A stretch of 64,000 nucleotides of DNA from Candidatus Multivoraceae bacterium (GTDB lineage: Bacteria; Acidobacteriota; Thermoanaerobaculia; Multivoradales; Multivoraceae): NCBI GenBank assembly GCA_965223385.1, contig CBDCWR010000007.1:2413803-2477802 (forward strand), given 5' to 3'. This document shows positions 6,613 to 43,756 of this stretch, one piece after another. The position numbers and the translations under genes were made by a program. Within the stretch, counting starts at the first letter, position 1; each line of letters starts with the position of its first letter. The notes below the pieces were generated by a model, which saw only the letters and a program-made list of their open reading frames with translations, was not told the origin of the DNA and ran no database searches.

Positions 6613-9201
6613 TCAGTCGGCGCGAATCGCCTGCGCGGGGTCGATGCGCAGAGCGCGCAGCGCCGGCATCAGCGACCCCAGCAGGGTCATGAGAGCGCAG
6701 AGAACTGCGACGGCTCCGAGCGTCCAGACGTCGGCCGGGGGAACACCGGCGAGGAGCGCGCGCAGTGTCCGCGCGGCGCCGAAGGCGAGGAGCGCTCCCA
6801 CCACGAGACCACCGGCCGCGAGAGCGGCCCCGCGCCCCAGCACCAGTCCGAGGATGTCGGGGCGGGCCGCCCCCAGGGCCACGCGCACGCCGATCTCGCG
6901 CTGACGCTGCGACACGAGGAAGGAGAGCAGCCCGTGGATGCCGACCGCTGCGAGCAGGAGCGCCACCACGGCGAATGCGACGACCACCCGGAGCTGCCCC
7001 GTGCGCGATGCCGTCTGGGCGTCGACGATCTGGCGGAGCGTGCGCACGTTGGACACGGGCTGGAACGGATCGGCACGCGCCACGATGTCGCGTGTGACCT
7101 CCGTCAGCGCCTCCGGGTTGATGCTGCTGCGAATGGCGAGGTCTTTTGGCACGTAGAAGCTCAGCGAGCCGTCGGGCACCTGTGCCGCCGGGAGGTACAC
7201 CTGGGGCTCGCTGGGCCGCTCGAGGCCACGCACGCGCACGTTGCCGACGACCCCCACGATCTCGCGCTCCTGGAAGGCGAACTCGAAGCGCTCTCCGAGC
7301 GGCGGCACGTCGGGGAAGAAGCGGTCGACGAACGACTGACTGACCACCGCAACCGGCGGCGCGTCCTGGCGGTCGCTCGGCTCGATGCCCCGCCCCCGCA
7401 GAAGAGGAATCTGCAGCGTGTCGAGCAGGCCGGACGTGGCAAAGCGGAGGCTGGCTGCGCTGCCGCCTTCGCGGCGCCCGGCGTTCTCTTCGGTCGCCAC
7501 CGGCCAGATGCCACCGGTCATCGTCATGGGCAGGAAGCTGATGAAGCCGGCGTCGTCCACTCCGGGGAGTGCACGGATCTCGTCGACCACCTGTTGGTAC
7601 CAGGCCACCCGCTCTTCGGTCTGGGCGTACTGGGGCATGGGTAGAGCGACGCGCAGAGTGAGCACCTGGTCGGGCTCGAAGCCGGGGTCGACCGCTTGGA
7701 CGCGCCAGAGCGCCCGCAGCAGCAGACCGGCCGAGACGAGGAGGACCACCGAGCAGACGATGCCCGCCAGAACGAGCGCCGAGCGCAGCCCCTCGCGTCG
7801 GCCGCCGCCTCCGCGGTCGTGCTCGGCGAGCGCCGAGAAGCCGCCTCGCCCGATGCGCAGCGCCGGCAGCACCCCGATGGCGACGCCGGTGAGCAGGGTG
7901 AGCGCGCCGGCGAAGGCGAGCACCGTGAGGTCGACGGACGGCCGCGTGTCCACCGGGAGGTTGTGCGGCACCATGCTGGCGAGCAGTGGGAGGGAGGCGA
8001 CGGCGACACCCACCCCGAGCGCCCCTCCGGCGCCGGCCAGCACCAGGCTCTCGGTGAGCAGCTGGCGGGCGAGGCGCTCTCGCCCCGCACCCATGACGGC
8101 CCGCACCTGCAGCTCGCGCCGGCGCGCCAGGCTGCGCGCGAGCAGCAGGTTGGCGAGGTTGATGCACGTGATCAGCAGCACGCAGAGGGCGGCTCCGGCG
8201 AGGGCGAGCACGAGCAGGCGCGCCTGCTGCGAGAACTCCTGCCGGAGTGCCACCACGTTGGCGCCCACGTCCTTGTTCAACACCGGGTTCTCCTCCTCGA
8301 CCCGCGCGGCGATGCGGTCGAGCTCCGCCTGCACCTGCGCCAGATCGGTGCCAGGGTGCATGCGCCCGACCACCTTGAGGAAGTTGTTGTTCCGATCGAG
8401 GAGGTCCTCTTCGGGAATCTGCAGCGGCGCCCAGTAGTCGACCTCGCGGTTCGGGAAGAGGAAGGTGGGCGGCATGATCCCGATCACGGTGTGATCCCGA
8501 CCGTCGAGCTGGACGACCTCGCCGAGGAGGCTGCGGTCGCCGCCGAAGCGTGCCTGCCAGAGGCGGTGGCTCAGCACCGCGACAGGGGGTGATCCCACCA
8601 CGTCGTTCTCCGGCACGAAGCCGCGCCCCAGAGCCGGCCGGACGCCGAGCGTGTCGAACAGGCCCGACCCCACCACGGCGCCCTGCAGGCGCCGGGGGCG
8701 CCCCTCGCCGCCGACGAGGTTGGCTGCCGTCTCCGTGTAGGGCGCCCAGCTCTGCAGTGTGGTGATCTGTTCCGACCAGTCCTCGTAGTTGGGGGGCGAA
8801 AGCTCCATGCGGCTGTAGCCGACCCGCTTCTCCCAGAGCTTCACCAGCTGGTCACTCTGCGGAAACGGCAGAGGCCGCAGGAGCACGTAGTCGGCGACGG
8901 AGAAGACGGCCGTGTTGGCTCCGGTGCCGAGGGCGATGATCGCGATCGCGGTGAGCGCGAATGCGGGAGCGCGTCGGTACGCACGGAGCGTGTGTCGCAC
9001 GTCTTGGCGGAGGAGGTCGGCGTGCACCGCGGCGGCGTTGCCGGCGACCTCGAAGCAGGCCGCAAGCAGCATCCAGAGCCGCGCCAACGTGCCCCTCTCG
9101 GCGCGCCACCGGTCGCGGAAGATGGCACTCATCTCGGGCCCGTACTCGTGCCGGAACGAGGCGGGGTAGAGGCGCAGGAGAAGCCGATAGAAGGCCATCA
9201 T
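6613..9201 (-). CDS. ADOP-family ABC transporter permease (FtsX-like, MacB-type periplasmic domain, permease-prefix domain)
   Basis: An 862-aa product with an N-terminal prefix MMAFYRLLLRLYPASFRHEYG and duplicated FtsX permease halves. Its start overlaps the PadR stop (ATGA). Confidence 0.8.
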   Translation of the reverse strand: MMAFYRLLLRLYPASFRHEYGPEMSAIFRDRWRAERGTLARLWMLLAACFEVAGNAAAVHADLLRQDVRHTLRAYRRAPAFALTAIAIIALGTGANTAVFSVADYVLLRPLPFPQSDQLVKLWEKRVGYSRMELSPPNYEDWSEQITTLQSWAPYTETAANLVGGEGRPRRLQGAVVGSGLFDTLGVRPALGRGFVPENDVVGSPPVAVLSHRLWQARFGGDRSLLGEVVQLDGRDHTVIGIMPPTFLFPNREVDYWAPLQIPEEDLLDRNNNFLKVVGRMHPGTDLAQVQAELDRIAARVEEENPVLNKDVGANVVALRQEFSQQARLLVLALAGAALCVLLITCINLANLLLARSLARRRELQVRAVMGAGRERLARQLLTESLVLAGAGGALGVGVAVASLPLLASMVPHNLPVDTRPSVDLTVLAFAGALTLLTGVAIGVLPALRIGRGGFSALAEHDRGGGGRREGLRSALVLAGIVCSVVLLVSAGLLLRALWRVQAVDPGFEPDQVLTLRVALPMPQYAQTEERVAWYQQVVDEIRALPGVDDAGFISFLPMTMTGGIWPVATEENAGRREGGSAASLRFATSGLLDTLQIPLLRGRGIEPSDRQDAPPVAVVSQSFVDRFFPDVPPLGERFEFAFQEREIVGVVGNVRVRGLERPSEPQVYLPAAQVPDGSLSFYVPKDLAIRSSINPEALTEVTRDIVARADPFQPVSNVRTLRQIVDAQTASRTGQLRVVVAFAVVALLLAAVGIHGLLSFLVSQRQREIGVRVALGAARPDILGLVLGRGAALAAGGLVVGALLAFGAARTLRALLAGVPPADVWTLGAVAVLCALMTLLGSLMPALRALRIDPAQAIRAD

Positions 9202-27873: not shown

Positions 27874-29568
27874 ATGAGTGCGAACCGCAGGGCCCTGACG
27901 ATCTTCCAGATCACGCCTTCGATCGACGGTGCCGACGTGTCGAGCTTCGACCAGGTCGTGCAGGCCTCCGCTCTCACCGACCCTCAGCTGCAGACGACGG
28001 AGCTCCCGGCGGGCTTCGACTTCGACGGCCGGCTGTATGTGATCGCCCCGGCCCCCGAGGAGCCGCGCTGGGGGGCGTTCCTGCGCGAGGGTTTCGGCGA
28101 CACGTTCAACCTGTCCGCCACGGCGACCAACCGCGCACTGCTCGTGATCCGTTTTCGCTACTACAACGCCGACCGCTACTTCGCGGTTGCGTTCGGCGCG
28201 GGCCGCCACCTGATGCGTCGTGACGCCTACGTGCGCTCGTTCGGGCTGAAGGCGGCGCTCAACCTGATTTACGAAGACGACGTCCTCGACGGCAGCGCGT
28301 CGAGCGATCGCGTGCGCCAGGTCGATTCGCGGACCGTCGCGGGTAACACGTTCCGGACGCGGCGCCAGGCGAACCGCGACACCACCTTCGAGCAGTTCGG
28401 CTTGGACACCGAGCGCGATCTGCTGAGCACGGTCACCGGGGAGCCGAGTGATCGGACCGAGCTGGGCTCCCGCGTCTTTGGTGCCGATCACGTCGGCGTC
28501 AATCTGCCGATCGACTTCTCCGGCCTCGTCGGCCTCTGCAAGAGGCTCTGGCGGGCGGGGCGTGCCGACGACTACGAGACGCACTTCAGCTGGATCGACA
28601 ACCTGTCGGCGATCGCGGAGCCCGCGCGCCTCGAGGCGCTGCGCTCCGCGGTGGTGCAGCAGCTGCGCGATGGTGCCGTGGGCGCCTTCGAACTGGCACC
28701 ACCGGAACTGGTCGACTTCGACGCGATCGAGACCTTCCGGATCGAGGTCGGCGCCAACGACGTCTCGGTGGCCGACCTCACTCTCAGCGCGTACCTCGCA
28801 CTGTTCGACGCTGGCGGACTCGCGGCGCTCACCTGGGACCGCATGAAGTCGCACCGTGTCGCCGCGCTGTCGGCCCAAGGTGAGCTCCTCCACAGGTGGC
28901 CCGTCTCCGACTGCCTGTTCGGCGAGCTGGACGACGACGGCGAGACCGTGCTGCTCGACGCGGCCGAGTTCTTCGCCGTCGCCGCCGACTTTCTGGCCGA
29001 CCTCGACGCGTTCGTCGCGGCGATCCCGGAGTCCGACGTCGACCTTCCCGACTCACGCATCGACGCGAACGGCCGGGAGATCAGCGAGGGGGTCTACAAC
29101 GTGGAGGCAGCGCAACACCTTCCCACGCATCTGCTGCTCGACAAGCGCACCGTCAGGGTGGCACCCAACACGAGCTCGATCGAGATCTGTGACGTGCTCA
29201 CGACGGACCGCAAGTTCGTGCACGTGAAGCGCAAGCTGGGCTCCGCGTCGCTGAGCCATCTCTTCTCGCAGGGCTACGTGTCGGGCGACCTGTTCGTGAC
29301 CAGCCACGAGTACCGCACGGCCGTTGCCGCCGAGATTGCAGCTGCCGAGGCAGACAAGGGCTCCGGGCCGATCTTCACGAACGCGCTCGACTTCCAGGCC
29401 CCCGACCCGGCTGCGATCGAAGTGGTCTACGCGGTGGTGGCCAACTGGAACGGCGACAGCGTGGTCGACCGCCTGCCGTTCTTCTCGAAGGTCAACCTGC
29501 GCCGCCACGCCACCGACCTGAGACGCCTCGGCTACGAGGTGACGTTCAAGCGCATCGACATTGCGTGA
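27874..29568 (+). CDS. DUF6119 / TIGR04141-like sporadically distributed protein (function unknown)
   Basis: ATG at 27874 has a GGGAGGTG RBS. The 564-aa product has a C-terminal region KFVHVKRKLGSASLSHLFSQGYVSGDLF that resembles, from memory, the TIGR04141 family. It abuts the left end of the low-GC island. Family assignment is tentative. Confidence 0.55.
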   Translation: MSANRRALTIFQITPSIDGADVSSFDQVVQASALTDPQLQTTELPAGFDFDGRLYVIAPAPEEPRWGAFLREGFGDTFNLSATATNRALLVIRFRYYNADRYFAVAFGAGRHLMRRDAYVRSFGLKAALNLIYEDDVLDGSASSDRVRQVDSRTVAGNTFRTRRQANRDTTFEQFGLDTERDLLSTVTGEPSDRTELGSRVFGADHVGVNLPIDFSGLVGLCKRLWRAGRADDYETHFSWIDNLSAIAEPARLEALRSAVVQQLRDGAVGAFELAPPELVDFDAIETFRIEVGANDVSVADLTLSAYLALFDAGGLAALTWDRMKSHRVAALSAQGELLHRWPVSDCLFGELDDDGETVLLDAAEFFAVAADFLADLDAFVAAIPESDVDLPDSRIDANGREISEGVYNVEAAQHLPTHLLLDKRTVRVAPNTSSIEICDVLTTDRKFVHVKRKLGSASLSHLFSQGYVSGDLFVTSHEYRTAVAAEIAAAEADKGSGPIFTNALDFQAPDPAAIEVVYAVVANWNGDSVVDRLPFFSKVNLRRHATDLRRLGYEVTFKRIDIA

Positions 29569-29784
29569 GGACGGGGTTCGGTTGGTCAAGATGCGCCGAG
29601 GCGCTCGTAGCGGCGAGGTCCGCGGGGGGCTGACCTAGCGACTCGAGTCGGTAGCGCGGAGGATTACGGAACCGCGTCCGTCTGGAGGCGAAAGAGCAAC
29701 GCTCCGTTCGCGCATCGACGACGTCTCGGCGCATCGGGCTCCGGCCTTTCTCCGACCGCCCAGCCCCATTGAGGGAGAATCAAG

Positions 29785-30036
29785 GTGTCATTTCAAGAAC
29801 TCTATGTGCGACTGAAGAGGACTCTTGGGCAACTGACGGGCCGGGACTGGCGAGAGGTCTTCGCACACCAGAACCTCAGCGAGGACCTTGGGTTCAGCGG
29901 CTCTGGCAAGCGTGCCCTTGCCTCCGACCTCAACCAGGAGTTCGCCGCGGAAGAGTTGCAGCTGACACCTGACGAAACGGGAGCCGCGGAGACGGTTCGG
30001 GACCTTGCCCGGCTCATTCAAGAGGAGCTTGGCTAG
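29785..30036 (+). CDS. Small hypothetical protein (83 aa), weakly acyl-carrier-protein-like
   Basis: GTG start with GAGGGAG 7 nt upstream. SEDLGFSGSGKRALASDL...TVRDLARLIQEEL loosely resembles an ACP 4-helix bundle but lacks the DSL phosphopantetheine serine motif. Its stop is 2 nt before the next gene. Confidence 0.45.
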   Translation: MSFQELYVRLKRTLGQLTGRDWREVFAHQNLSEDLGFSGSGKRALASDLNQEFAAEELQLTPDETGAAETVRDLARLIQEELG

Positions 30037-30038
30037 GT

Positions 30039-31229
30039 TTGGCCATGGACCTTCTACGAACAGGGCTCCTTCTCTCCTTGGCTTTTGCCGCAGCGAGTGC
30101 CGCAAGAGCTGCAGATCTCGCTGATGTCCGCGCCTGTGATCAGGATGGCAGTGGCCTGGTCGAGGAGGACGAGCTGCGCTTCTGCCTTTTGAGCGTTCTC
30201 GAGCCCGAGGCCGCGGACCTCGATACGAACAAAGATGGAGCGATCTCTGCGAAAGAAGCTCGGGTCTACTGGGAGCCCGATCTGCTCGACCTAAGAGAGC
30301 GCTACGGTCCGCCACCGTACACGGTGAAACAGCTAGCTGACTTCTTCCCTCTCGAGGGCGAGTTGTCGCTTGGCGGAGTCTTGATCCGGAGGAGCTATCA
30401 GCAGGTCACGCTCAGTGAGCCGGCGAAGTCCTTCAAGAAGGCCGAAGGGGCGCTGTTCTCTTTCTCGGACGACCAGGCCAACGACGTGGAGTCGTGGCAG
30501 GCAAAGGGTGCCGTTATCGGCGTGCTCAAACTTCGTGAGAAGTCAGACAAGGCGCTCACAGCGATTGGTTTCGTTCCAAGCCTAGAGTTCGAAAGGAACG
30601 GAGTAGATGGCCCGGACGAAACGCAGGCCGCCGGTGACTCAGGAGAGAGTCCGGATCCTCCTGAGGACGCTCAAGAGGAAGTCGACCGACTCGTTCTCCG
30701 GGCAGGCTTCGACTTCGAGGTCATCGGGAAAGGCCCGGGTCTGCAGAACTTTCGCATCTTTGTGGCGCACGCGACGGACTTCGACTTCGATAGCGGAGTC
30801 AACGCGATTCAGCTGCAGTGGGAACCCACTCACAACCAGTGGGGGCTTGGGGTGTTCCGACCGGTTGGAGGGATCAGACTGGACTACCGCCTGCGCTTTC
30901 TCGTTCACGCTGAGCTTGGGGAGATTGGTGAGGCTGGCGAGAAGCTGGCGTTGGAGGAAGACGACACGTTTTCCCGATTGGGACCGGAGGTCCAACTCGA
31001 GCTTCAGCCGAGTGGCTTCAGAAGGCTCACGCTGAAAGCCCAGTGGAGAAACTTCTATCGCGTGGGCGGGGACGGCCCAGACCACGTCGAGATGTTCATC
31101 GCCGGTGCCGCTCTCTCACTTGACCGAGACGGCCACTTCTCCCTTGAAGCGGAGTACCAGAACGGGAGGGCCGAGTTGACCCTCGAGGACACAGACCTGC
31201 GAAAGGTCGGTCTGGCGATCAAGTTCTGA
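30039..31229 (+). CDS. Secreted EF-hand calcium-binding protein (two canonical EF loops) with a large uncharacterised C-terminal domain
   Basis: Signal peptide (MAMDLLRTGLLLSLAFAAASAARA), then DQDGSGLVEEDE and DTNKDGAISAKE, both perfect 12-residue EF-hand loops. The roughly 300-aa C-terminal domain is unknown. TTG at 30039 or ATG at 30045. Confidence 0.65.
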   Translation: MAMDLLRTGLLLSLAFAAASAARAADLADVRACDQDGSGLVEEDELRFCLLSVLEPEAADLDTNKDGAISAKEARVYWEPDLLDLRERYGPPPYTVKQLADFFPLEGELSLGGVLIRRSYQQVTLSEPAKSFKKAEGALFSFSDDQANDVESWQAKGAVIGVLKLREKSDKALTAIGFVPSLEFERNGVDGPDETQAAGDSGESPDPPEDAQEEVDRLVLRAGFDFEVIGKGPGLQNFRIFVAHATDFDFDSGVNAIQLQWEPTHNQWGLGVFRPVGGIRLDYRLRFLVHAELGEIGEAGEKLALEEDDTFSRLGPEVQLELQPSGFRRLTLKAQWRNFYRVGGDGPDHVEMFIAGAALSLDRDGHFSLEAEYQNGRAELTLEDTDLRKVGLAIKF

Positions 31230-31660
31230 GAAGACCGCTTCGGTCCGCCGTCTGGACGGTGCCTAAATGACAGTGAAGGAACGTACGTCCTGGTCCGCGC
31301 CTCAGCGCCGACCTTCTCGGCGAGTCATGTCCTTCCTTCTTGCGGTCAAATCGGGCGTTGGCGCCATCTCGAGATCCTCCTGGAAGACTCACGCTGGCTT
31401 TCGGCTCGGACGCGAGGATCACGCAGGCCGACGGAGCGTTTCCCGGCCTTTCGGTTGGGTCGACTCAGGAGCGGGTCTGGCGCCTTATCCGGCCAGCAGC
31501 CTCATGTAAGTTCGTACTACGGCACGAAGGAGACTCGTCCAGCGGGTGGGCGCCGCTTTCGGCATCGCTCCTCAGACCTCGATGCAGACGGGGGTTCTGC
31601 GGACCGTGAGATCCGAGTCCTGGATCTGCTGACAGACCTCCTCTCCTGGCCCTTGCGAAA

Positions 31661-31710
31661 TGGAGCCGATGAGCGGACTTGAACCGCTGACCTGCTGATT
31701 ACGAATCAGT
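31661..31710 (-). other. tRNA-Thr(CGU)-derived 3' half (anticodon arm to CCA), probable integrase att-core remnant, not a functional tRNA
   Basis: The minus strand reads CTGATTCGTAATCAG-CAGGTC-AGCGGTTCAAGTCCGCT-CATCGGCT-CCA, with a UUCGUAA anticodon loop, T-arm, acceptor 3' strand and CCA. No matching 5' acceptor or D-arm follows. A P4-type int N-terminus starts 125 bp away. Confidence 0.55.
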
Positions 31711-31835
31711 GATCGTCTGTTTGTGGGCCTTTGCGCGTGTTTGCGAACCCGCGTTGCTGCTGAATTCTAGGGGAAGCATGGGGTGTGCTCTATGTCGCGG
31801 TTTGCGTGTCGTGGATGGTACAGTGATGGTACGGT

Positions 31836-32231
31836 ATGCGAGGGAGAATCACCAAGAAGGCTGTCGATGGATTGGCTCCGCGAATGGGTGCCGATGGTGC
31901 CCTTCGTGCTGAGCGGTTGTGGGATACGGATGTCACTGGCTTTGGGTGCCTGGTGACGAAGTCCGGGCACAAGAGCTACATCTTTCAGTACCGAACGCGG
32001 CAGCAGGCAAGCAGGACGCCCAAGCGGCTGACGATTGGGGCGCATGGCGAGCTCACCCCGGATGAAGCGCGCACCATTGCTCGAGAACTCCTGTTCAAGG
32101 TCCGCTCCGGAGAGGATCCGGCTCTTGAGTGGAGAAGGGTCAAAGGTGAGACGTTCGGAGACCTCGCGGATCACTTCATGCGCACGTACCTGCCGGCGAA
32201 GAAGCGGCCTCCGAGGGCATCCACCAGAAGT
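31836..32231 (+). pseudogene. P4-type tyrosine integrase, N-terminal (DUF4102 arm-binding) fragment truncated by IS insertion
   Basis: ITKKAVDGLAPRMGADGALRAERLWDTDVTGFGCLVTKSGHKSYIFQYR...GELTPDEARTIARELLFKVRSGEDP is a typical arm-DNA-binding domain. The ORF reads through into the IS terminal repeat at about 32231. No catalytic domain lies downstream. Confidence 0.65.
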
Positions 32232-32260
32232 GAATCGCTCCGAGTTTCCCGGAGACCTTT

Positions 32261-33495
<1,235 letters not shown>

Positions 33496-33649
33496 GACTC
33501 CGATTCTCCCAAGGAATGGAGTCTCCGGGATTCCCGGTGCGGTTCAGTAGTGATTCTGCGCCATCTCGATACCAACGTTGAGCGCATGCTTGGGAGAGTG
33601 CCGCGACACAGAGAGCTGCGTGAGTTAATCAGGACTTTCATCGAGACTG

Positions 33650-34105
33650 GTGGCGCACCTCTCGGTTGATCACCCGGCCGGGGAGGACTTCGTGAGTCTG
33701 AAAGTAGTTGAGCCGTCCGAGAATCTCCATCGCGCTGTGGCTAATGTCACAAGGAGACTCAACGAAATGGGCTACGAGGGTCCAACGCCACGCGACGCGA
33801 CTGGAGTGGTCATCGTTGGGCGCGAGGTTGTCGGTGCGTTTTGTCTCAGCGACTTCACGGCCCCGCCGGGCGCGACGAGACTGAAGTGGATGGGCTCCAC
33901 AGAAACGGCAGAACGGAACAAACTCAGGGTTGGTACCTTCATCGTCCGGCACGCCGTGGCCGAAGCTAGAGCTGATGGGTTCGAAGAGATCCTCCTCTCG
34001 GTACGAGGGACCAACGAGCGCGCCATTCGCCTATACACGAGGGAGGGCTTCCGCCTCACCGGGAAAGGCAACGAGCAAGAGCTGGAAATGCGCCGTACGC
34101 TCTAG
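33650..34105 (+). CDS. GNAT-family N-acetyltransferase
   Basis: A 151-aa product with GTNERAIRLYTREGFRLTG (GNAT motif A/B region). GTG start. Confidence 0.65.
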   Translation: MAHLSVDHPAGEDFVSLKVVEPSENLHRAVANVTRRLNEMGYEGPTPRDATGVVIVGREVVGAFCLSDFTAPPGATRLKWMGSTETAERNKLRVGTFIVRHAVAEARADGFEEILLSVRGTNERAIRLYTREGFRLTGKGNEQELEMRRTL

Positions 34106-34173: not shown

Positions 34174-35898
34174 CTAGAGGTTCCCGAGCACGGTAGCCAT
34201 GGCTCGTTTCTCGGCCTCCTGCTGCTCGAATTCGCCGGAGTGCTGCATGATCGCCGCTCGCTCTTCGAACTCCTCTCGAAGGTCCGGAGACAGCTGATCG
34301 CCTAGCTGGCGAGCCGACAGAGGGTCGGGCGCCTCGAGTTGCAGCGGTGGGCGATCGGTCTCCCTAGATATCTCTTGTCCCCTAGTAGTACCTAGGGACT
34401 CCGAATGGTCGCAAGGGTCGCAAGAACCCTGACGAGAGCGGGGTTCTGAGCCGTTCAAGGTCGCAAGGTCTTGCGGGTTGGCGGTGTTGGCCAAGTCGCA
34501 AGGTCGCAAGGAGCTATACGTGCATGGGGAGGATTGGGGGTCGAGGCCGCGTTCGTGAGCAACTCGGAGAACGGCAGCAATCGAGCGGCGCTTCAGGCTA
34601 GCGTTGTTGTGCCAGACGGACTCTGAAGGAATCCCTAGCCGCTTGAGGGTAGTTCCAAGCTTCGCAATGCTGATAGGCCTGCCTTCCTTGTAGTTGCCCC
34701 AGCGCTCGGGGGCTTCGCCGATCATGTGCTGCTGCAGCTCTTTGGTACTGAAGGAGTCGCTCGGGTGTGCCTCCGCGAAAGAAAGGGCCGCCTCGAGAAT
34801 CTCCGTCTCGACGCTCTTGATTGGGCCTTGGCTTCGCTCCTGTAGCCAGCTGAGGAATGGGTGTCGTTCGCCAACAGCATCAGTCCTTTGCCGTAGCTCC
34901 TTGGCCAGCACCGTCATGGCGTTTCGTCCACCCGGTAGGTCCGTGAGTTTCTCGAGGTGCGGCCCAAGACCGTGAAATGGCCTGTTCCGCACGTACTCGG
35001 CAGCCCATTCGCCAAACGGCCTCCGAATCAAGTGGATCGCCTCCTCGAGTTGCTCTTGGGTGGGTGAGCGTTCTTCGACGAGGTCGGCCAGGTCCTCTCC
35101 GCCGCTACGGGCAGCAAAGAACTCGACAACGAGGACCGATTGCGCGACGTCCTCTAGAACTCGACCAGCGCCGAGAGCGTAGTCTCGCCCCACTCGATCG
35201 GCGTCAGGCCAGATCAGAACCCGGCTCGCTCCATCGAACGACGCTAGATGACGCTCATCGAGGTCTGTGCCGTTCGGAGCAGTTGTGGCGTTGAGCCCCA
35301 GTTTGACGGCAGCATCTGCCACTTTGCAGCCTTCCACCAAGTGAACATCTTCCCGGCGCTCAACTGCTCGACGTATCCGCTCTTCGCGATAGAGCTTGGG
35401 AGACAGATCGTCTAGCGCTGCGCGCCATTTGGGGCCGTCCTGACGCTGCCACATGAACCTCTTCTTGCCGCTCTCCAGGTCGTAGCGGAGAAGCCGTAGT
35501 GCTGGTCCTTCAATGGAGTCAAAGGCGTACTCGGTGACCCTAGCGTACGAGGTTGATGGCGGTGTGAGACCGTAGCAGGAGGCGAGGGCCACGATCGCAG
35601 CGAACCGTTCCTTTCCTACGGGTTCAACCCCGTAGCCAGCAGCAAGCTCAAGCCAGGTCCCTCCAGGCCGGTCGGGCAGAACGAGCGGCCCTAGCTTTCC
35701 GGGCTTGTAGATGATCCGGTCGGCGTGACGATGAAGGCGCCAGGGCTGATTGGGTGGAAGCTTGGTCGCTTGCCACTTGCCGTCCTTCCGGCGCTTCCAG
35801 CCGAGGTCCATGCCGATCACGCCAGCGATCGCGTTTGGATCTCGACCGATCGCCGGAAGTACGAACTGGTCGTAGAAGCTACCTGCTGAGGTGAGCAT
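34174..35898 (-). CDS. Primase-like replication protein with Toprim domain (integrative-element/satellite-type)
   Basis: About 574 aa from MLTSAGSFYD. SRVLIWPDADRVGRDYALGAG is a Toprim DxD motif. It sits in an int-alpA-primase arrangement. The in-frame ORF extends to 35985. Confidence 0.6.
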   Translation of the reverse strand: MLTSAGSFYDQFVLPAIGRDPNAIAGVIGMDLGWKRRKDGKWQATKLPPNQPWRLHRHADRIIYKPGKLGPLVLPDRPGGTWLELAAGYGVEPVGKERFAAIVALASCYGLTPPSTSYARVTEYAFDSIEGPALRLLRYDLESGKKRFMWQRQDGPKWRAALDDLSPKLYREERIRRAVERREDVHLVEGCKVADAAVKLGLNATTAPNGTDLDERHLASFDGASRVLIWPDADRVGRDYALGAGRVLEDVAQSVLVVEFFAARSGGEDLADLVEERSPTQEQLEEAIHLIRRPFGEWAAEYVRNRPFHGLGPHLEKLTDLPGGRNAMTVLAKELRQRTDAVGERHPFLSWLQERSQGPIKSVETEILEAALSFAEAHPSDSFSTKELQQHMIGEAPERWGNYKEGRPISIAKLGTTLKRLGIPSESVWHNNASLKRRSIAAVLRVAHERGLDPQSSPCTYSSLRPCDLANTANPQDLATLNGSEPRSRQGSCDPCDHSESLGTTRGQEISRETDRPPLQLEAPDPLSARQLGDQLSPDLREEFEERAAIMQHSGEFEQQEAEKRAMATVLGNL

Positions 35899-36130
35899 CG
35901 TCGTCGTGCCTCGCGACCGTCTCGGGCTCGTCGATGGCTGGCAGCGACTCGAGGTATTCCTCGATCTCGCGTCGAAGCCAGGCACTTACTCTTGGGCCGA
36001 GTCTTCTAGGAGCGGGGAAGGTGCCGTTCTTGACCCATCGATAGAGAGTTGGGACAGAGACGCCGAGAAGTTTGGCTGCCGCGGAGGGCCTCAACATCAA
36101 CGAGAGGTCTGCGGAATCGTGAGTCATCAA
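35879..36130 (-). CDS. AlpA-family phage regulatory protein / excisionase (HTH)
   Basis: MLRPSAAAKLLGVSVPTLYRWVKNGTFPAPRRLGPRVSAWLRREIEEYL has the AlpA/Xis MerR-like HTH signature. The likely true start is the internal Met at 36097. Confidence 0.7.
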   Translation of the reverse strand: MMTHDSADLSLMLRPSAAAKLLGVSVPTLYRWVKNGTFPAPRRLGPRVSAWLRREIEEYLESLPAIDEPETVARHDDDAHLSR

Positions 36131-36421: not shown

Positions 36422-37636
36422 CTAGGCTCCTTGGCTGAACGGGACCACAGACGCAAGCCCTGAGCCGCTAGCGATACCCCTGACGCGCTCGCCCCAAAGC
36501 TCGAGGGCCGCCCTCTTCTCGTCGTCGTAGGCGTGACGGTTGTAGATGGCAGTTATCGAATGGTCCGCGTGATTGAGGATGCGGCTGATGATCGGTGGCT
36601 CGACGCCAAGCCGAGCCATGTGCGTGGCCGCGGTCCGTCGAAAGTCATGGGGTGTCCAGTCACGTGTGCCACTTCGCTGGCGTAGACGGCTAGTCGCTCG
36701 AGTGAGACGGCCGATAGGGCGACCAGGGTTTACGGGACTCTCGAACACGAACTCGTTGTGGCCTGTCGTGTCCTCCAGTCGGAGGATCGACTCCATGGCT
36801 AGCTCCGACAATGGAACGCGGCTCGCTCTAGCACTCTTCGTGTCAGCCGCGGGAATTGTCCACCAGGCGCCCTCGATGTCTACCCATCGCATCGTCCGGA
36901 CCTCACCAGGCCGTTGGGCGGTGAGGAGCAGGACGCGGTACATCGCCGCGGTGACGGGCTGCTCGTCGTTGAGGGCGCTCCAGACAGCTTCGATCTCCTC
37001 CTCGGAAAGTCGGCGCTCCTTTGGAGTCTCCTTCGCTGGCCTGTCCACCAGCAAGGCGGGGTTCGTGTCCGCGTAGCCTCGCTGTAGGCCGAAGTTGAAC
37101 ATCTTCGAGATGAGCGCTCGAAGCCGATTTGCCGCTACGGGTGCTCTCTTGGCCTTCTCATCGAGGAGGCGAGCGACCTCGACTCGCCCGATTTCGGCCA
37201 CGGGGATGCCTGACCACGCAGGCAGTAAGTCGGACCGGAGATAGCGTTCGTCTTCGCGCCAGGACGATTCGCGCTTTTCTCTGCGGGCGTAGTTGTCGAG
37301 GTAGTCGGAGGCAAGAGCCTCGAAGGTGCGGCCAGCGGCAAGCGCAGCGGCGCGCTGAGCGCTCTTCTGCTCCGCTACGGGGTCGAGGCCATCGGCGACG
37401 TCCTGGCGGAGCCTGCGGGCCCGTTTGCGAGCGTCTGAGAGGCTCAGGTCAGGGTAGTTGCCGAGCTTCTTGCGACGCTGCCCGCCATCAGGTCGTCGGA
37501 AACGGAGCATGAACGCCTTGGAGCCGTCGCAATTGACTCGGAGGACCAGGCCTGGAACTTCGCCGTCTCGGATCTCATAGCGCCGTGTTCGAGGCAGGAG
37601 GGATCGAATAGTCCTGTCCTGGAGGATTGTGGCCAT
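36422..37636 (-). CDS. Tyrosine-type site-specific integrase (P4-like, DUF4102 N-terminus), apparently intact
   Basis: Starts at MATILQDRTIRSLLPRTRRYEIRDGEVPGLVLRV. The catalytic region has HDFRRTAATHMARLG...ILNHADHSITAIYNRH (R..H..R..Y). The in-frame ORF extends to 37810. Confidence 0.85.
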   Translation of the reverse strand: MATILQDRTIRSLLPRTRRYEIRDGEVPGLVLRVNCDGSKAFMLRFRRPDGGQRRKKLGNYPDLSLSDARKRARRLRQDVADGLDPVAEQKSAQRAAALAAGRTFEALASDYLDNYARREKRESSWREDERYLRSDLLPAWSGIPVAEIGRVEVARLLDEKAKRAPVAANRLRALISKMFNFGLQRGYADTNPALLVDRPAKETPKERRLSEEEIEAVWSALNDEQPVTAAMYRVLLLTAQRPGEVRTMRWVDIEGAWWTIPAADTKSARASRVPLSELAMESILRLEDTTGHNEFVFESPVNPGRPIGRLTRATSRLRQRSGTRDWTPHDFRRTAATHMARLGVEPPIISRILNHADHSITAIYNRHAYDDEKRAALELWGERVRGIASGSGLASVVPFSQGA

Positions 37637-37820: not shown

Positions 37821-37871
37821 CACTGACTGAAAATCAGGGTGTCGGTGGTTCAAATCCGCCTCTGGGCACCA
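37821..37871 (+). other. tRNA-Phe(GAA)-like 3' half (anticodon arm to CCA), att-core remnant, not an intact tRNA
   Basis: ACTGA-CTGAAAA-TCAGG GTGTC GGTGG-TTCAAAT-CCGCC TCTGGGC-A-CCA is canonical tRNA-Phe from the anticodon loop onward. No 5' acceptor (GCCCAGA) or D-arm lies upstream. It is 185 bp from the int start codon. Confidence 0.5.
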
Positions 37872-37980
37872 GCAACTCAAGGGTTTCGAGCGACCGAAAA
37901 CACGCTGCGTCTCGTAGGTCACCGATAGGTCACCTCGACGCGTCGTTTGAGAGCCGGGGGCAGACGAGAAGGGGAGGGAC

Positions 37981-39123
37981 GTGAACGCTGAGCGACTGCA
38001 TGCGTTGGCTCTGGTGCTGAGGGAACACCTGAAAGAGCTGAACCTGCCCGCCTCACTGGCTGCACTCGAGTCCGAACTAAGTACGCTGGTCTCAAGTCCC
38101 TCCGACGAGACTGCGCAGCTTCAGGTAAGTCTGAAGCGGAACGAGCTGATCGCCGGCTTGGAGTCTTCGCTTCGGGACGAAGGTCCCTTGTTTGCCGATG
38201 GCATTCAAGAGCTTGGAGTGGATGGCCTGGTAGGACCAGGACTTGCCGGTGCGCTTCGTAGCGCGCTTGCGGGCGAGGATCTCACTCCAGCGGCGGCACA
38301 GGCGGGGGTTGAGCGGCTGCGTTCAGAGGTCGCAATGCTCGAAGGGCACCTCAAGAGCTTGGTAAATGCTCTTGAGAGTTTCCATGTTGGCCACGAGTTG
38401 CTCGGCCCTGGGGAAGCTGAACTCGCCGTCGTAATCCCACGGTCAGCCGTGAAGAACGAGGTGGGAGAGCTCGCAGATGATCTCGAGGGGCTGGACAAGA
38501 TCTTCGGCTGCCTGGCTGAGGTTGCGACTGGCCAGAGGGCCGACCTCAAGATCCGGACGATCTCCTCGTCCGATCTCACCTTCCTCCTGGAGGTGCTTCC
38601 GGAGGTTGGTGCGGCTATTGCCTTCTCGGTGCGGTGGCTGGTGCAGACGTACAAGGACGTCTTGGAGATCAAGAAGAACCGCCAAGATCTGGCGAACAAG
38701 GAGATCCCTCAGGAGGTGCTGGACGACCTCGATGCGCACATTCAGGAGCGGGTCGATGCTGCGATAGCGGATGGCGTTGAGGAACTGTTCAAGGAATTCG
38801 ACAAGCGCCGGCCGGCGGGCAGAAAGGAAGAGCTAAGGAACGAGCTCCGACGCTGGCTCGGAGAGCTGATGAAGCGCATCGACCACGGCTACCATGTCGA
38901 AGTTCGAGCTGCGCCGAGAGAGGACGGAGAGGAGGAAGAGGAGAGGGACGAGTCCGCTGAACACCTCGAGAAGATCTCCGAGCTAGCGGCTCAGACCCCC
39001 TACGTCGCCATCGCTGGGAGGCCCGTTCTCTATCTGCCGGGACCCGACGATCAAGAGGACGCTGATGGCGCCGCGGACGAAAGTCCAGACGAGCCCGACG
39101 AGAGCGAAGATTCCGAACCCTAG
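37981..39123 (+). CDS. Hypothetical protein (380 aa, predicted alpha-helical, acidic C-terminal tail), orphan island cargo
   Basis: GTG start with a GGGGAGGG RBS. No recognisable motif. The C-terminus is DEPDESEDSEP. Its stop TAG is the first triplet of a 36-bp direct repeat. Confidence 0.6.
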   Translation: MNAERLHALALVLREHLKELNLPASLAALESELSTLVSSPSDETAQLQVSLKRNELIAGLESSLRDEGPLFADGIQELGVDGLVGPGLAGALRSALAGEDLTPAAAQAGVERLRSEVAMLEGHLKSLVNALESFHVGHELLGPGEAELAVVIPRSAVKNEVGELADDLEGLDKIFGCLAEVATGQRADLKIRTISSSDLTFLLEVLPEVGAAIAFSVRWLVQTYKDVLEIKKNRQDLANKEIPQEVLDDLDAHIQERVDAAIADGVEELFKEFDKRRPAGRKEELRNELRRWLGELMKRIDHGYHVEVRAAPREDGEEEEERDESAEHLEKISELAAQTPYVAIAGRPVLYLPGPDDQEDADGAADESPDEPDESEDSEP

Positions 39124-39156
39124 ACACCGCCCGCACGATCGGCCCAAGCGACCGGG
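39121..39156. repeat. 36-bp direct repeat, copy 1 (TAGACACCGCCCGCACGATCGGCCCAAGCGACCGGG)
   Basis: 35/36 identical to copy 2 at 40427..40462. It starts at the stop codon of gene 37981..39123. Confidence 0.6.
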
Positions 39157-39448
39157 CACGTAGCTAGGCGGCATCCTCTTCTGCGAGCGAAGCCCAGAAG
39201 AAGCCTCGCGGCGCGCGCTTGATCTTGGCCAGCACCTCGACCGCGTCCCCGAGGGCCTGCTACTCGTCCGGGGTCGCGATCGCGACCCTCTGGCCGTGGC
39301 GCGGCGCCCTCGGCGACTCCGCCATGCGTTGCATCGCAGGACGACGGTGAGCGCTAGCATTGGGCTACGCAAGCGCGGCGAAAGCCGCGGCTGCTCGGGG
39401 CGCAGGCGCTTGGCCGGGGGCCAGACGAGATAAGGAGGAACCCAAACG

Positions 39449-40363
39449 ATGGTCAGTAGCCGACGACTGGCCGTGACCGTACTGATCGTCGTGACGCTGG
39501 GCCAGCCCAGTGCCGGCTGGTCCAGCGAGGCTGCGTTTCCAACGGGAAGCCGAGGAGCTTGGACGCGGAACAGCGGCGAAGAGCGTCTGAACGTCACCGA
39601 GTCTCACATTGTCCACCACCACAACGGCCTGCTCAAAGTCCGGAAGCTGCTCAGCATCGACCGGCTGCAGGCCAAGCTCCGATTCAACGGTACCGAGTCT
39701 TGGGTTGCCTTCTATGTCCAAGATGAGCATCTGTACTTCGCGGATCGGAGCTTCGAGAGAGTGTCGCCGATACCTGACGATCTCCAAGTCCTTACTCCAT
39801 TCCAAATCCCTCAGCCGTCCGCCGCTGCCGCCAGCGACATCGAGGCCGCACAGGGGCTTCTGAGGCTCATGATCCGGAATGACCAACGGCTCCGAAAGGA
39901 GCGGCGTCCGCCAGACGAGCTGCGGCGCGCAGGCAAGAGGCATGCCGAAAAACTAAAAGGGATCCTAAGAAACCAGGGCTGGATCGACATCCACAGATTC
40001 GGCCCTGAGGCAGCGATGAACGCGTTTCTGGTCGTTCAGCACAGCAATGACCTGCCGCTGATGCTCTCCGCACTGCCGCTGATCAAGAGTGATCTCGAGA
40101 ATCTCGGAGGTCGAGAGGCAGGGGACATGTTTGCGCTGCTCTTCGATCGCATAAGAGTGCGAACAGGCGAGCTTCAACGCTACGGCAGTCAGCTCAACGA
40201 AGACGCCACAGGTCCATACGTTCTCCCCTTAGAAGATCCGTGCAGCATTGACGACCTTCGCCAAGCTATCGGCCTTGAGCCTCTGCAGGAATACGTAGCG
40301 ATCGCATCGAAGGAGTTCTATGCAGGACGCCCAGTGCGCCTTCTCACCCCCTGCGAGCATTAG
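39449..40363 (+). CDS. Hypothetical secreted protein (304 aa), orphan island cargo
   Basis: A perfect AAGGAGG RBS lies 9 nt upstream of the ATG. Signal peptide-like MVSSRRLAVTVLIVVTLGQPSAG. No recognisable catalytic motif. The gene is bracketed by the 36-bp direct repeats. Confidence 0.6.
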   Translation: MVSSRRLAVTVLIVVTLGQPSAGWSSEAAFPTGSRGAWTRNSGEERLNVTESHIVHHHNGLLKVRKLLSIDRLQAKLRFNGTESWVAFYVQDEHLYFADRSFERVSPIPDDLQVLTPFQIPQPSAAAASDIEAAQGLLRLMIRNDQRLRKERRPPDELRRAGKRHAEKLKGILRNQGWIDIHRFGPEAAMNAFLVVQHSNDLPLMLSALPLIKSDLENLGGREAGDMFALLFDRIRVRTGELQRYGSQLNEDATGPYVLPLEDPCSIDDLRQAIGLEPLQEYVAIASKEFYAGRPVRLLTPCEH

Positions 40364-40426
40364 CTCTGGAGAATACTCGGTGGCCACCTAGATCGCCCCT
40401 TATCGGCGAGCCTCCAAGACCGCCTG

Positions 40427-40462
40427 TAGACACCGCCCGCACCATCGGCCCAAGCGACCGGG
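40427..40462. repeat. 36-bp direct repeat, copy 2 (TAGACACCGCCCGCACCATCGGCCCAAGCGACCGGG)
   Basis: One mismatch to copy 1. It lies immediately upstream of the ATG at 40469. Confidence 0.6.
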
Positions 40463-40468
40463 GGTGCG

Positions 40469-41083
40469 ATGGCGGCTCACAACTCGAGGTTCCGGGTGCA
40501 GTCCTACACGGGCGACTCGGAGTGGCTCCAGCCGGTGGAGGTTTTCCTCTTCCGCGGCTACCAGAAGGTGGGGCAGACGCGGCACCTCGGCCCGAATCGC
40601 TACTGCCCGACCACCCTGGCCACGCTCCAGACGAACGCGGACCGGCTCTTCCTCTCGCCTGAGACGCGCACGCTGGCAGCCTCTGAAGGCTGCCCGAGCT
40701 CGCCTCTGCTCCTCTGGGTCGAGAGCGCCTTTGACTCAGCTCTGAGCGGCTTCAGCGGCGCTGTGGTGCCTCTTCTCGAGCAGGGCGTGGGCGACGACGA
40801 CCCGAGGCTTGCGCTGGCGCTCAGGAACGTGTCAGGGCGCCTGAAGACAGCCTCCGAGGAGGAGAAGCAGGCCGTCATGGACTGGCTTGAGGACTCAGGC
40901 ATGCGCGAGCAGGTGCCCGAGACGTTGAAGACCTCCCCGAGGTGCTTTTGGGCGTCGCTGGCGGTGGCCGAAGAGGCCGCCACTAGAGAGCGCTACCCCG
41001 TCGCCTCGGGATCCCAGTCGCGAGCCCAGCCACCATTTCGGATCTCCTTGGCTAGTTCGAGGATCTCCGGGTGCTTTGCGTAG
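40469..41083 (+). CDS. Hypothetical protein (204 aa), uncertain
   Basis: ATG follows a GGGGG stretch. The central part is protein-like (EEEKQAVMDWLEDSGMREQVPETLK). The 3' 90 nt overlap the convergent TPR gene, so the true end is uncertain. Confidence 0.35.
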   Translation: MAAHNSRFRVQSYTGDSEWLQPVEVFLFRGYQKVGQTRHLGPNRYCPTTLATLQTNADRLFLSPETRTLAASEGCPSSPLLLWVESAFDSALSGFSGAVVPLLEQGVGDDDPRLALALRNVSGRLKTASEEEKQAVMDWLEDSGMREQVPETLKTSPRCFWASLAVAEEAATRERYPVASGSQSRAQPPFRISLASSRISGCFA

Positions 41084-41511
41084 GGGCAAGGTGGATCCAA
41101 GCTCGCAAGCGCACGCTCCGGCTGGTTTAGCTCAGCGAGAACCCGGGCGCGTCCGAAGTGCGCTTCGTGGTCACCTCCCAGGTCGACGGCACGCTCGAAG
41201 TAGCTGAGCGCCAGCTCCAGCTGCTCGTCCCAGACGTCGTACCAGTACCCGAGCTCGTTGTGTGGCTCGGGGTCGTCGGGCGCAATTTCGAGAGCACGCT
41301 CGTAGCTTTGACGCGCATCCTCCAGTTCCCGACGAGGGTCATCGTCCCCCAACAGGATCAGATGGCCACGCAGGAGCCAGAGCTCCATGGACCTCGGGAA
41401 GGCGTCCAGCGCCTGATCCGCTACCGCAACCAGGGCACCTGGGACGTCTCCCTCTTCAGGTATCTGCTGGCGGATCCGCTCCAACCAGGCTTCCTCGGAT
41501 ACTGGAGCCAC
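40993..41511 (-). CDS. TPR-repeat protein
   Basis: A 172-aa product with TPR-like helical repeats (ARQSYERALEIAPDDPEPHNELGYWY, ALSYFERAVDLGGDHEAHFGRARVL). Confidence 0.55.
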   Translation of the reverse strand: MAPVSEEAWLERIRQQIPEEGDVPGALVAVADQALDAFPRSMELWLLRGHLILLGDDDPRRELEDARQSYERALEIAPDDPEPHNELGYWYDVWDEQLELALSYFERAVDLGGDHEAHFGRARVLAELNQPERALASLDPPCPYAKHPEILELAKEIRNGGWARDWDPEATG

Positions 41512-41787
41512 CCGTTTCTCCCTTCAGTTCCTGATACCTAATGCAGCAACACTGCCAGTCCACCGGATCCGACGGCCGGAAATCCGGAACGCTCCTGTCG
41601 CAGCAGCGAACCGCCGCTCGCCTCCGGGACGAACGTCAGAGACAGGCTCGAACGCGGCCGTCTCTGAGCTGACGTGCTCCCCGTTTCGTACCACGGACTT
41701 CTGGACATTCGGGCAAGTTGGCTACCTGCGGCTGCGGTGCGCGGGTCGAGTCCAGAAACACACCAAAGGCGTCAGGATTGGTTCACG

Positions 41788-42042
41788 ATGAGAGCAATTG
41801 CCGGAGGCCTTCTGCTTGCAGCATGGATCGCGCTCCCGACCGTGGTGCAGTCTCAGTCCGTCTTCTGTGACAACTTCGCTCTCGCCCCGTTGCATCCCCA
41901 ACCAGCAATTCAGGGGAGCTCGCTCTCCGTGAGGGTCTACGGAAGTTGGCCGACGACCAACGTCCCTGATCTCGTCGGAGCATCTGTCACCGGGAACACG
42001 ATCCGAGTGCAACTGGAAGGGCCTACACACTCGCAATCCTGA
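41788..42042 (+). CDS. Small hypothetical secreted protein (84 aa)
   Basis: Signal peptide MRAIAGGLLLAAWIALPTVVQS. No similarity recognised. Low confidence. Confidence 0.3.
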   Translation: MRAIAGGLLLAAWIALPTVVQSQSVFCDNFALAPLHPQPAIQGSSLSVRVYGSWPTTNVPDLVGASVTGNTIRVQLEGPTHSQS

Positions 42043-42343
42043 TTTCACTTGTCGCGACTCTTGGTGTCCATCATCTCCGCTAGCGACGCCACGGATCGGA
42101 GGCTGATCTCGGACCGGCCTGCAGGAGCGGGGGCGCAGCTTCGAGGGAGTCTTTCCGACGGAACGGGGGAGCGCTCATCGCCATCGCGAGACGGGCACCC
42201 GAGTTCGTCCGGCGTCAGGCATACTTCACCCGCGAAGCGATCTCGGCGCATACGTCGCCGTGTTGGACGAGGGCCGCGAAGCGACGCGGCTCATCCAGGG
42301 GAGGCGTCTCCTGCAACGGGTCGCTCCTGCTTGAGTTGACGAA

Positions 42344-43660
42344 ATGAGAGTCCTCCTCCTCTTGGCTGTGTTTCTCGGCTCGCTGTCGTGTGCGACCCGG
42401 GTCCCGGTTGCCGAGCAGCTCGGTCTTGCCGTACCGACGCGCGTGTTCCTCATCTCCATCGACACGCTGCGCGCCGACCACCTCGGCTCCTACGGGTACG
42501 AGCGGGACACGAGCCCTCACCTCGACGTGTTCCGTCAAGAAGCCGTGCTGTTTCGCGAGGTCATCTCGCACGCTCCGTCGACCCTTCCCGCCCATGCGTC
42601 GATTCTGACCTCGCTGCTGCCGCAACATCATCTGGCCTCCGTCGCCGAGGACACGGCGCTGGCGGACGAGGCGCTGACGCTTGCAGAGGTGTTTTCTGCA
42701 GCCGGGTTCAAGACCGTCGCCGTGACGGGTGGCGGCCAGCTCGACCCCGCCTACGGTGTGGACCAGGGGTTCGACACGTACCGGATTCCCAAGAACAACC
42801 AGCAGTTCCGGACGGTTGCGCGGCAGACATCCAACTGGCTCCGGAAAAACCGAGACCGCGCGTTCCTGTTCCTGCACACCTACCAGGTACATGCGCCCTA
42901 CGTGTCACCTTCGGAGCTCCTCGACGTTCTGGGCAACGACTACACCGGCAGCTTGCCCGACCAGATCGACACCTCGATCCTCGACGCCATCAACGGAGGC
43001 GAGCTTGCAATCGACGACGAGGACCTCGCGCACATCGTCCGCACATACGACGCCGACATCCGGCGCATGGACCAGCAGCTCGCGCGGTTCTTCGGGTGGC
43101 TGAAGGGTGAGGGCCTCTACGACGACAGCCTCATCGTGATCACGTCGGACCATGGCGAAGAGTTCGGGGAACGAGGTCAGGTCGGCCGACACTCCTACAC
43201 GCTCCACGATGAGCTCCTTCACGTGCCCCTGCTCATCCGCTTCCCCGACGGGGCTTTTGGTGGCTCCGAGGTCTCGTCCCAGGTGCGCGGCATCGACATC
43301 GCACCGACGATCCTCGAGGCCCTTCGTCTTCCTGTGCCGGAGGAGTTCCAGGGGACATCACTTCTGGGACATCTCGAGCAGACGAGACCCTCACTTCCTG
43401 CTGTGAGCAGTCTGGACAAGTTCACGGCGCGGATGTGGTCGCTCCGAGACGGCGGTTGGAAGCTCTATGGCCCAGCGCTTTACGACCTGGCCAACGACCC
43501 CGGCGAGCTGGAGGACGTGGCGATGACGCAGCGCGAACGGTACGAGGACCTCCGCCGCACGCTCCGCGAGCAGGTTCAGGCTCGGGAGCCGCTGCCCCTG
43601 AATCAGGTGACCCCCGACGAACAGCTCATTGAGCAGCTCAAGGCGCTCGGCTACCTGTAG
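42344..43660 (+). CDS. Sulfatase-like hydrolase/transferase (alkaline-phosphatase superfamily), secreted
   Basis: A 438-aa product with a signal peptide and LISIDTLRADHLGSYGY (sulfatase N-terminal metal-site region) plus ITSDHGEEFGERG (sulfatase signature II-like). Confidence 0.75.
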   Translation: MRVLLLLAVFLGSLSCATRVPVAEQLGLAVPTRVFLISIDTLRADHLGSYGYERDTSPHLDVFRQEAVLFREVISHAPSTLPAHASILTSLLPQHHLASVAEDTALADEALTLAEVFSAAGFKTVAVTGGGQLDPAYGVDQGFDTYRIPKNNQQFRTVARQTSNWLRKNRDRAFLFLHTYQVHAPYVSPSELLDVLGNDYTGSLPDQIDTSILDAINGGELAIDDEDLAHIVRTYDADIRRMDQQLARFFGWLKGEGLYDDSLIVITSDHGEEFGERGQVGRHSYTLHDELLHVPLLIRFPDGAFGGSEVSSQVRGIDIAPTILEALRLPVPEEFQGTSLLGHLEQTRPSLPAVSSLDKFTARMWSLRDGGWKLYGPALYDLANDPGELEDVAMTQRERYEDLRRTLREQVQAREPLPLNQVTPDEQLIEQLKALGYL

Positions 43661-43756
43661 TACACCCGAAGCTCCTTTGGCTGGGCCTCTGCCGGGCAGC
43701 TCCGGAGGCTGAGCTAGGGAACTGGGCGGTCGCTCCGTGGCACGACGGCCTCGACT

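Follow-up and report, generated by a model that had tools for sequence, protein, structure and literature searches.

The question raised by this locus is whether half a tRNA gene lying beside half an integrase gene is the trace of a site-specifically integrated element, and, if so, what became of the rest of that element. The window, by which we mean the whole 64,000-nt stretch of DNA that was analysed, holds such a pair on the left side of an IS3-family insertion sequence and, on its right side, a second pair in mirror image. Our analysis makes it very probable that the 3′ part of a tRNA-Thr(CGU) gene was displaced by an element with a P4-like integrase acting at the anticodon loop, and that the remains of this element were later joined at the insertion sequence to a second island, with an inversion as the favoured route. 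The tRNA-Thr piece itself is a thoroughly known and ordinary feature, the dead stump of an anticodon-site island, and its head-to-head fusion with the end of a tRNA-Phe island is the only aspect that is mildly notable. Its value is mainly one of annotation: within an uncultured-type Acidobacteriota genome, it shows where a degraded genomic island has one of its boundaries.

The tRNA-Thr piece and the integrase stump

Read on the minus strand from 31709 to 31661, the piece is 49 nt long, CTGATTCGTAATCAGCAGGTCAGCGGTTCAAGTCCGCTCATCGGCTCCA, and corresponds to positions 28-76 of tRNA-Thr(CGU), with CCA included. It opens with a 4-bp anticodon stem (CTGA/TCAG) that encloses the loop TTCGTAA with anticodon CGT, and continues through the variable region AGGTC, the T-arm AGCGG-TTCAAGT-CCGCT, the acceptor 3′ strand CATCGGC, the discriminator T and an encoded CCA. 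An exact-match query made of its first 46 of 49 nt was found in eight places among species-representative genomes, seven of them inside intact tRNA-Thr(cgt) genes called by ARAGORN; these seven genes belong to Thermodesulfobacteriota, Acidobacteriota, Thermoanaerobaculia, Firmicutes-type and Deltaproteobacteria MAGs. When the window was aligned with the seven intact genes, all 49 nt were invariant and the window diverged exactly at tRNA position 27. The earlier note on this DNA had described a truncated tRNA-Thr(CGU) 3′ half lacking its 5′ half at 31661-31710, and both the identification and the truncation are borne out by the perfect match to seven genes, while the span has to be shortened by one base, to 31661-31709, as base 31710 falls outside the identity block. 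Upstream of position 28 the alignment with the tRNA-Thr genes revealed no D-arm and no acceptor 5′ strand. ARAGORN called no tRNA at the site, and a local search with the Rfam tRNA model gave 17.8 bits against a gathering score of 29; across the whole 64-kb window no tRNA at all exceeded that gathering score. The window contains each half of the piece a single time, and 100 shuffled sequences gave no match. By the Islander definition the piece is a displaced fragment, matching the 3′ part of a genuine tRNA without being a complete tRNA gene, and its block of identity, which begins in the anticodon stem and extends to the 3′ end of the tRNA (28-76), places it in the anticodon-loop ('A') sublocation.

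The neighbouring gene, int1′ (31836-32230, plus strand), encodes codons 1-131 of a P4-like tyrosine integrase. It retains only the Arm-DNA-bind_3 domain (Pfam PF13356, 1.3e-14, 54.5 bits against a cut-off of 27) and ends at codon 131, so that the catalytic domain with its R-H-R-Y active site is absent. The product is 56% identical to residues 1-131 of a 410-residue integrase from a locus that we call L006 and describe below; residues 132-410 of this homologue, that is the C-terminal two thirds, gave no tblastn match across the insertion sequence or anywhere else in the window. The open frame continues for 11 codons into the insertion sequence, to 32264, and int1′ is a pseudogene. The arm-binding N-domain is all that is left of the tyrosine integrase of this element (element 1 in what follows), and the intact integrase nearby, int2, belongs to another clade and has a tRNA-Phe fragment of its own. 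Only about 520 bp of element 1 is left at the locus, in agreement with the earlier suggestion that it is immobilised.

The 126 bp between the tRNA core and int1′ (31710-31835, plus strand) form the element-side arm. This interval contains GTTTG[CT] motifs and, immediately 5′ of the int1′ ATG, a tandem pair GATGGTAC-N3-GATGGTAC at 31814-31821 and 31825-31832, with a spacing of 11 bp. The exact 8-mer has just these two occurrences in the 64 kb. A tandem pair of the same 8-mer at equal spacing also precedes the full-length L006 integrase (823-841), and related tandem GATTGC repeats are present at the integrase loci L015-L018, L010 and L009. Judged from sequence, the arm motifs and the GATGGTAC pair are probably arm-type sites or operator (autoregulatory) sites for the N-domain of the integrase.

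Fragments beside related integrases

Displaced 3′ tDNA fragments at the ends of islands, including the anticodon-centred class 'A', have been catalogued (Hudson, Lau & Williams 2015, PMC4383910; Williams 2002, PMC100330). In the Islander collection the regenerated tDNA and the displaced fragment mark the two island ends, a 3′ fragment was found in 3760 of 3919 islands, and 2083 used the anticodon-centred site (PMC4383910). The piece in our window resembles the Islander fragments in being a perfect tRNA segment from anticodon stem to CCA, with the remnant of a tyrosine integrase gene just inside and surroundings of lower GC content. It differs from the Islander islands in that the intact tRNA is not within the window, the integrase is a stump, and most of the island body has been replaced through the insertion-sequence junction.

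An alignment of int1′, the L006 integrase and three short database relatives was used to scan metagenome contigs, and this yielded 80 loci whose integrases are 31-100% identical to that of L006. For the 58 loci with at least 300 bp of sequence upstream of int, we surveyed the upstream DNA; 50 of them carry an antisense tRNA 3′ piece there, recognizable by its T-arm, CCA and U33/R37 signature. ARAGORN called no intact tRNA at any of these fragment positions. The median distance from the T-arm to the start of int is 192 nt in the family, and the corresponding distance in the window is 151 nt. The tRNA targets vary by clade (Lys, Thr, Ala, Arg, Met, Gln, His and Pro), and the closest relatives of int1′, those 51-58% identical to the L006 integrase, are associated with Thr(CGT) or Ala(GGC). 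For this clade the survey provides a working rule, by which int lies 150-250 bp from the displaced fragment, is divergent from it and is preceded by tandem 8-mers; the rule can help to delimit islands in MAGs.

The most instructive relative is a contig of Acidobacteria bacterium LB_ACB_1, QQVD01000048, which accounts for the one genome match out of eight that does not lie in an intact tRNA gene. At L006 on this contig an identical 49-nt fragment (~8670-8718, minus strand) shows the same break, and a complete 410-residue integrase begins 149 bp away on the opposite strand, in divergent orientation. An intact tRNA-Thr gene (locus L004, 80166-80240, minus strand) is found 71.5 kb from the fragment, on the same strand and on the fragment's 5′ side, and the repeat common to the two comprises the 49 nt plus one base. 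The DNA has a GC content of 0.63 towards the island and of 0.71 beyond it. QQVD01000048 is a textbook island with int at its fragment end. It shares with our window the identical fragment and break, the divergent int and the GATGGTAC pair; the interval between fragment and int is 149 bp there and 126 bp here. The LB_ACB_1 island differs from the window in being complete, with its 71.5 kb, its 410-residue integrase and its partner tRNA, and the DNA similarity between the two is confined to the 49 nt. The earlier proposal that the piece is the core of an integrase att site, probably the distal partial repeat, is upheld by the 50 of 58 homologous loci together with the QQVD01000048 fragment and its intact tRNA-Thr partner, and the evidence supports our reading of the piece as what appears to be a standard attachment junction with a displaced tDNA fragment, of the anticodon-loop class.

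At L010 (~1437-1448) and L009 (~4603-4612), both with broken integrases, the fragment position is occupied by only 10-12 nt comprising the anticodon loop and the inner stem strand. These remnants would fit a strand exchange in or beside the anticodon loop. L010 has an IS110-type transposase next door, and the short remnants at both loci could also reflect integration at a secondary site or later disruption.

The locus is similar to P4/CP4-57-type islands of Proteobacteria in its integrase domain set (Arm-DNA-bind_3, Phage_int_M and Phage_integrase), in the AlpA-like excisionase and primase found beside int2, and in having a tRNA gene as target. In the E. coli examples of this type, int adjoins the intact tRNA gene and points in the same direction. 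The window departs from these examples, as does the int1 family as a whole, in that int adjoins the displaced fragment and points away from it.

The insertion sequence and a mirror-image tRNA-Phe module

The break in int1′, at codon 132, falls at the left inverted repeat of an insertion sequence of 1316 bp (32231-33546, minus strand). This element has the hallmarks of the IS3 family, namely overlapping reading frames orfA (33495-33175, minus strand) and orfB (33178-32261, minus strand), an ALIL pseudoknot (33101-33217, minus strand; Rfam RF01497, 108 bits against a gathering score of 50) as the signal for programmed -1 frameshifting between them, a DDE transposase matching NCBIfam transpos_IS3 (NF033516) with 303.9 bits against a cut-off of 160, and 26-nt terminal inverted repeats of the TG..CA type that begin with TGAA (TGAATCGC.../...GCGGTTCA). 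A flanking target duplication, which belongs to the same family definition, is missing. The flanks read ..CAGAAG and GTAGTG.., and they differ at 3 bp (AAG/GTA), at 4 bp (GAAG/GTAG) and at 5 bp (AGAAG/GTAGT). A 3-5 bp duplication would be expected from a simple IS3 insertion, and its absence from the window copy is the signature of later recombination or deletion. The earlier note had attributed the reduction of int to its arm-binding domain to an IS3 insertion; the truncation at the insertion sequence stands, and the simple insertion does not, since the lack of a target duplication together with the missing remainder of int points to a rearrangement junction. The insertion sequence is present as a single copy in the window. 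A 12-nt repeat, GCGCCATCTCGA, with copies at 31361 and 33558 on either side of the insertion sequence, was judged to be a chance occurrence.

To the right of the insertion sequence lies a second displaced piece, 49 nt on the plus strand at 37823-37871, with the sequence CTGACTGAAAATCAGGGTGTCGGTGGTTCAAATCCGCCTCTGGGCACCA, corresponding to positions 28-76 of tRNA-Phe(GAA), with CCA included. It has a single occurrence in the window and no 5′ half, and its score with the Rfam tRNA model, 16.7 bits, is under the gathering score. Its identity was established with a degenerate pattern of its anticodon loop, variable region and T-arm, which matched 60 ARAGORN-called tRNAs in viral contigs, all 60 of them tRNA-Phe(gaa). 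The piece lies 186 bp upstream of int2 and is divergent from it, so that this pair is the mirror image, across the insertion sequence, of the tRNA-Thr piece and int1′; the two tRNA pieces are ~6 kb apart. Both this fragment and the intact integrase beside it, ~6 kb to the right of the tRNA-Thr piece, had escaped the earlier note.

The gene int2 (36422-37636, minus strand) encodes an intact P4-like tyrosine integrase of 404 residues in which Arm-DNA-bind_3, Phage_int_M and Phage_integrase all score above their cut-offs. An identical 404-residue protein is on record, and int2 is 25% identical to the int1-type integrase. Beyond int2 are a gene for an AlpA/excisionase-like HTH protein (35879-36130, minus strand; HTH_17 1.6e-10, Phage_AlpA 1e-08, PHROG excisionase/transcriptional regulator 7.8e-13) and one for a primase-like (Toprim) protein of this second element (34174-35985, minus strand), which matches PHROG DNA primase families at 1e-08 to 8e-06, the dnaG domain TIGR01391 at 2e-06 and PRK07078 at 1e-12, the last two under their cut-offs, and Pfam Toprim weakly. 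Adjoining the insertion sequence is a GNAT acetyltransferase-like gene (33650-34105, plus strand; Acetyltransf_1 7.4e-06, PHROG acetyltransferase), cargo of the second element, whose GC3 of 0.70 resembles that of island genes. Relatives of int2 carry AlpA and primase genes as well, and one that is 44% identical has a tRNA-His fragment at the equivalent position. Viral contigs were also scanned, with int2, the int1-type integrase and exact tRNA-Phe patterns as queries, and gave no useful match. Taken together, the tRNA-Thr and tRNA-Phe pieces indicate that the insertion sequence (32231-33546) is probably where a rearrangement of the chromosome had a breakpoint.

A proposed history and its alternatives

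The attP of a tRNA-integrating island contains a copy of the 3′ part of the tRNA gene, so that integration restores the tRNA at one end of the island and displaces the old part to the other. In the history that we consider very probable, the 49-nt piece would be the original chromosomal 3′ part of tRNA-Thr(CGU), displaced by an element with an Arm-DNA-bind_3 integrase at the anticodon-loop sublocation. The attP of element 1 would have carried a copy of tRNA positions 28-76, and strand exchange within the anticodon loop or immediately beside it would have joined this copy to the chromosomal 5′ half, so that a functional tRNA gene was restored at one end. The displaced 3′ part would have stayed at the other end, directly beside int, as a P-O-B′ junction; the 126-bp interval between core and int would be the arm of the element, with the GATGGTAC pair probably bound by the N-domain. 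An IS3-family element would later have come to lie at codon 132 of int1, and everything of element 1 past codon 131 would have been replaced by the int-proximal end of an unrelated island facing the opposite way, with its int2, excisionase, primase and GNAT genes. Homologous recombination between two copies of the insertion sequence, one in each island, would be the most economical route to this arrangement, and would account for the missing target duplication; a large inversion seems the likeliest form of such recombination. From the sequence arrangement we infer where the crossover took place, what the arm sites do and that an inversion occurred.

The geometry of the locus bears on this choice. 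Element 1 would be expected to extend rightward from 31710 to a minus-strand tRNA-Thr, and element 2 leftward from 37822 to a plus-strand tRNA-Phe, and the two meet head to head at the insertion sequence after 0.5 kb and 4.3 kb, respectively. Sequential integrations cannot give this head-to-head arrangement. In the 64-kb window we found no intact tRNA-Thr, not even in the 32 kb on the right, the side on which the partner is expected from the standard geometry, and no intact tRNA-Phe; the second copy of the roughly 50-nt tRNA-Thr core that the earlier note had proposed as a check was not found in the window either. Degenerate older copies of either fragment, such as tandem islands would leave, were absent from the window at up to 14 mismatches. 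The window shares no synteny with the flanks of the tRNA-Thr genes in other genomes, and in the two closest GDH relatives (89% and 86% identity) the gene order after GDH is unrelated and no tRNA is present. ARAGORN did call a tRNA-Thr(cgt) at 40607-40702 (minus strand), on the right strand and side for the partner; this call is 96 nt long, lies within an open reading frame, has no Rfam tRNA match at thresholds up to E<=10 and bears no similarity to tRNA-Thr, and we regard it as a false positive. Lying ~9 kb from the fragment, it could be mistaken for the partner gene of the island. A tRNA-Cys(gca) called by the same program at 8640-8721 (minus strand, 82 nt) also has no Rfam support and is likely to be a false positive.

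That the tRNA-Thr piece is a decayed pseudogene or a chance tRNA-like sequence with no relation to site-specific integration would account for the missing 5′ half and for nothing else. A perfect match of 49/49 that stops abruptly at position 27 is not the pattern of gradual decay, the same break recurs in the QQVD01000048 fragment, the N-terminus of an integrase stands at the distance and in the orientation typical of the family, and the shuffled sequences produced no match; as far as sequence comparison can show, this reading appears effectively refuted. A mis-join by the assembler of two loci that each bear the insertion sequence would produce the mismatched flanks of a repeat-type element that are seen here. 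We consider such an artefact quite improbable, as the 4.4-Mb contig occurs in two archives, which suggests a finished assembly, and repeats of 1.3 kb are normally spanned. A deletion between neighbouring islands, mediated by IS3 or by recombination between directly repeated copies of the insertion sequence, would have eliminated the remainder of each island and, with it, the regenerated tRNA-Thr and tRNA-Phe genes. It would explain a single insertion sequence with mismatched flanks at the junction. The GC skew does not change sign across the insertion sequence, and this too favours a deletion; against the inversion, the lack of a skew switch is compatible only with an inversion placed symmetrically around the replication axis, or with none. 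The window also holds no second copy of the insertion sequence or reciprocal junction that would support an inversion. However, tRNA-Phe(GAA) is normally the sole Phe isoacceptor and often a single-copy gene, and its loss speaks against a deletion; moreover, in the seven genomes with a matching tRNA-Thr, the flanks examined contain no tRNA-Phe. We favour the inversion because a deletion would remove both intact tRNA genes, and we think a deletion unlikely.

The remaining alternative is suggested by base composition. The two modules lie within a low-GC block at ~29.6-43.7 kb (0.60-0.64, against 0.67-0.71), and outside the two fragments, at 29.6-31.6 kb and 37.9-43.7 kb, the DNA has the same low GC content (0.60-0.64) as between them and a low GC3 as well. 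This fits poorly with a purely native flank or with a simple island end, and neither model explains it; either the outer low-GC DNA represents older island remnants at tRNA hot spots, or the fragments are attP cores in a composite insert. In the second case both 49-nt pieces would be unrecombined, and the ~14-kb low-GC block would have brought in two head-to-head attP-int modules, one specific for tRNA-Thr and one for tRNA-Phe, by an entry independent of either integrase. The low GC and GC3 on either side of each fragment and the lack of an intact partner tRNA within 64 kb both agree with this, and from the int side an attP and a P-O-B′ junction look the same. The motifs of the outer flank cannot separate the two, since the true P′ arm at L004 also lacks GATGGTAC. 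Yet in QQVD01000048, the only case in which the partner is visible, the junction is a genuinely integrated one, the 14-kb block is bounded neither by direct repeats nor by a second copy of the insertion sequence, and two independent unintegrated elements would be needed together with an unknown mechanism of insertion. A composite insert is in our view an improbable origin, about on a par with the deletion, and integration followed by recombination between two copies of the insertion sequence remains the reading that we prefer.

Some further features of the low-GC block are recorded here. The outer segments (29600-31660 and 37900-43700) contain open reading frames that gave no family match, along with genes for an EF-hand-like protein, a TPR protein and a sulfatase. 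A plus-strand gene at 27874-29568, with a native-like GC3 of 0.90, borders the block on its left and encodes a TIGR04141/DUF6119 'sporadically distributed' protein, which has a PHROG match of unknown function. Within the right-hand segment, a 36-nt direct repeat (39121-39156 and 40427-40462; 35 of 36 positions identical, with the similarity ending at 36 nt) brackets a DUF6624 gene (39449-40363), and may be an intergenic repeat or may have been left behind by a small insertion.
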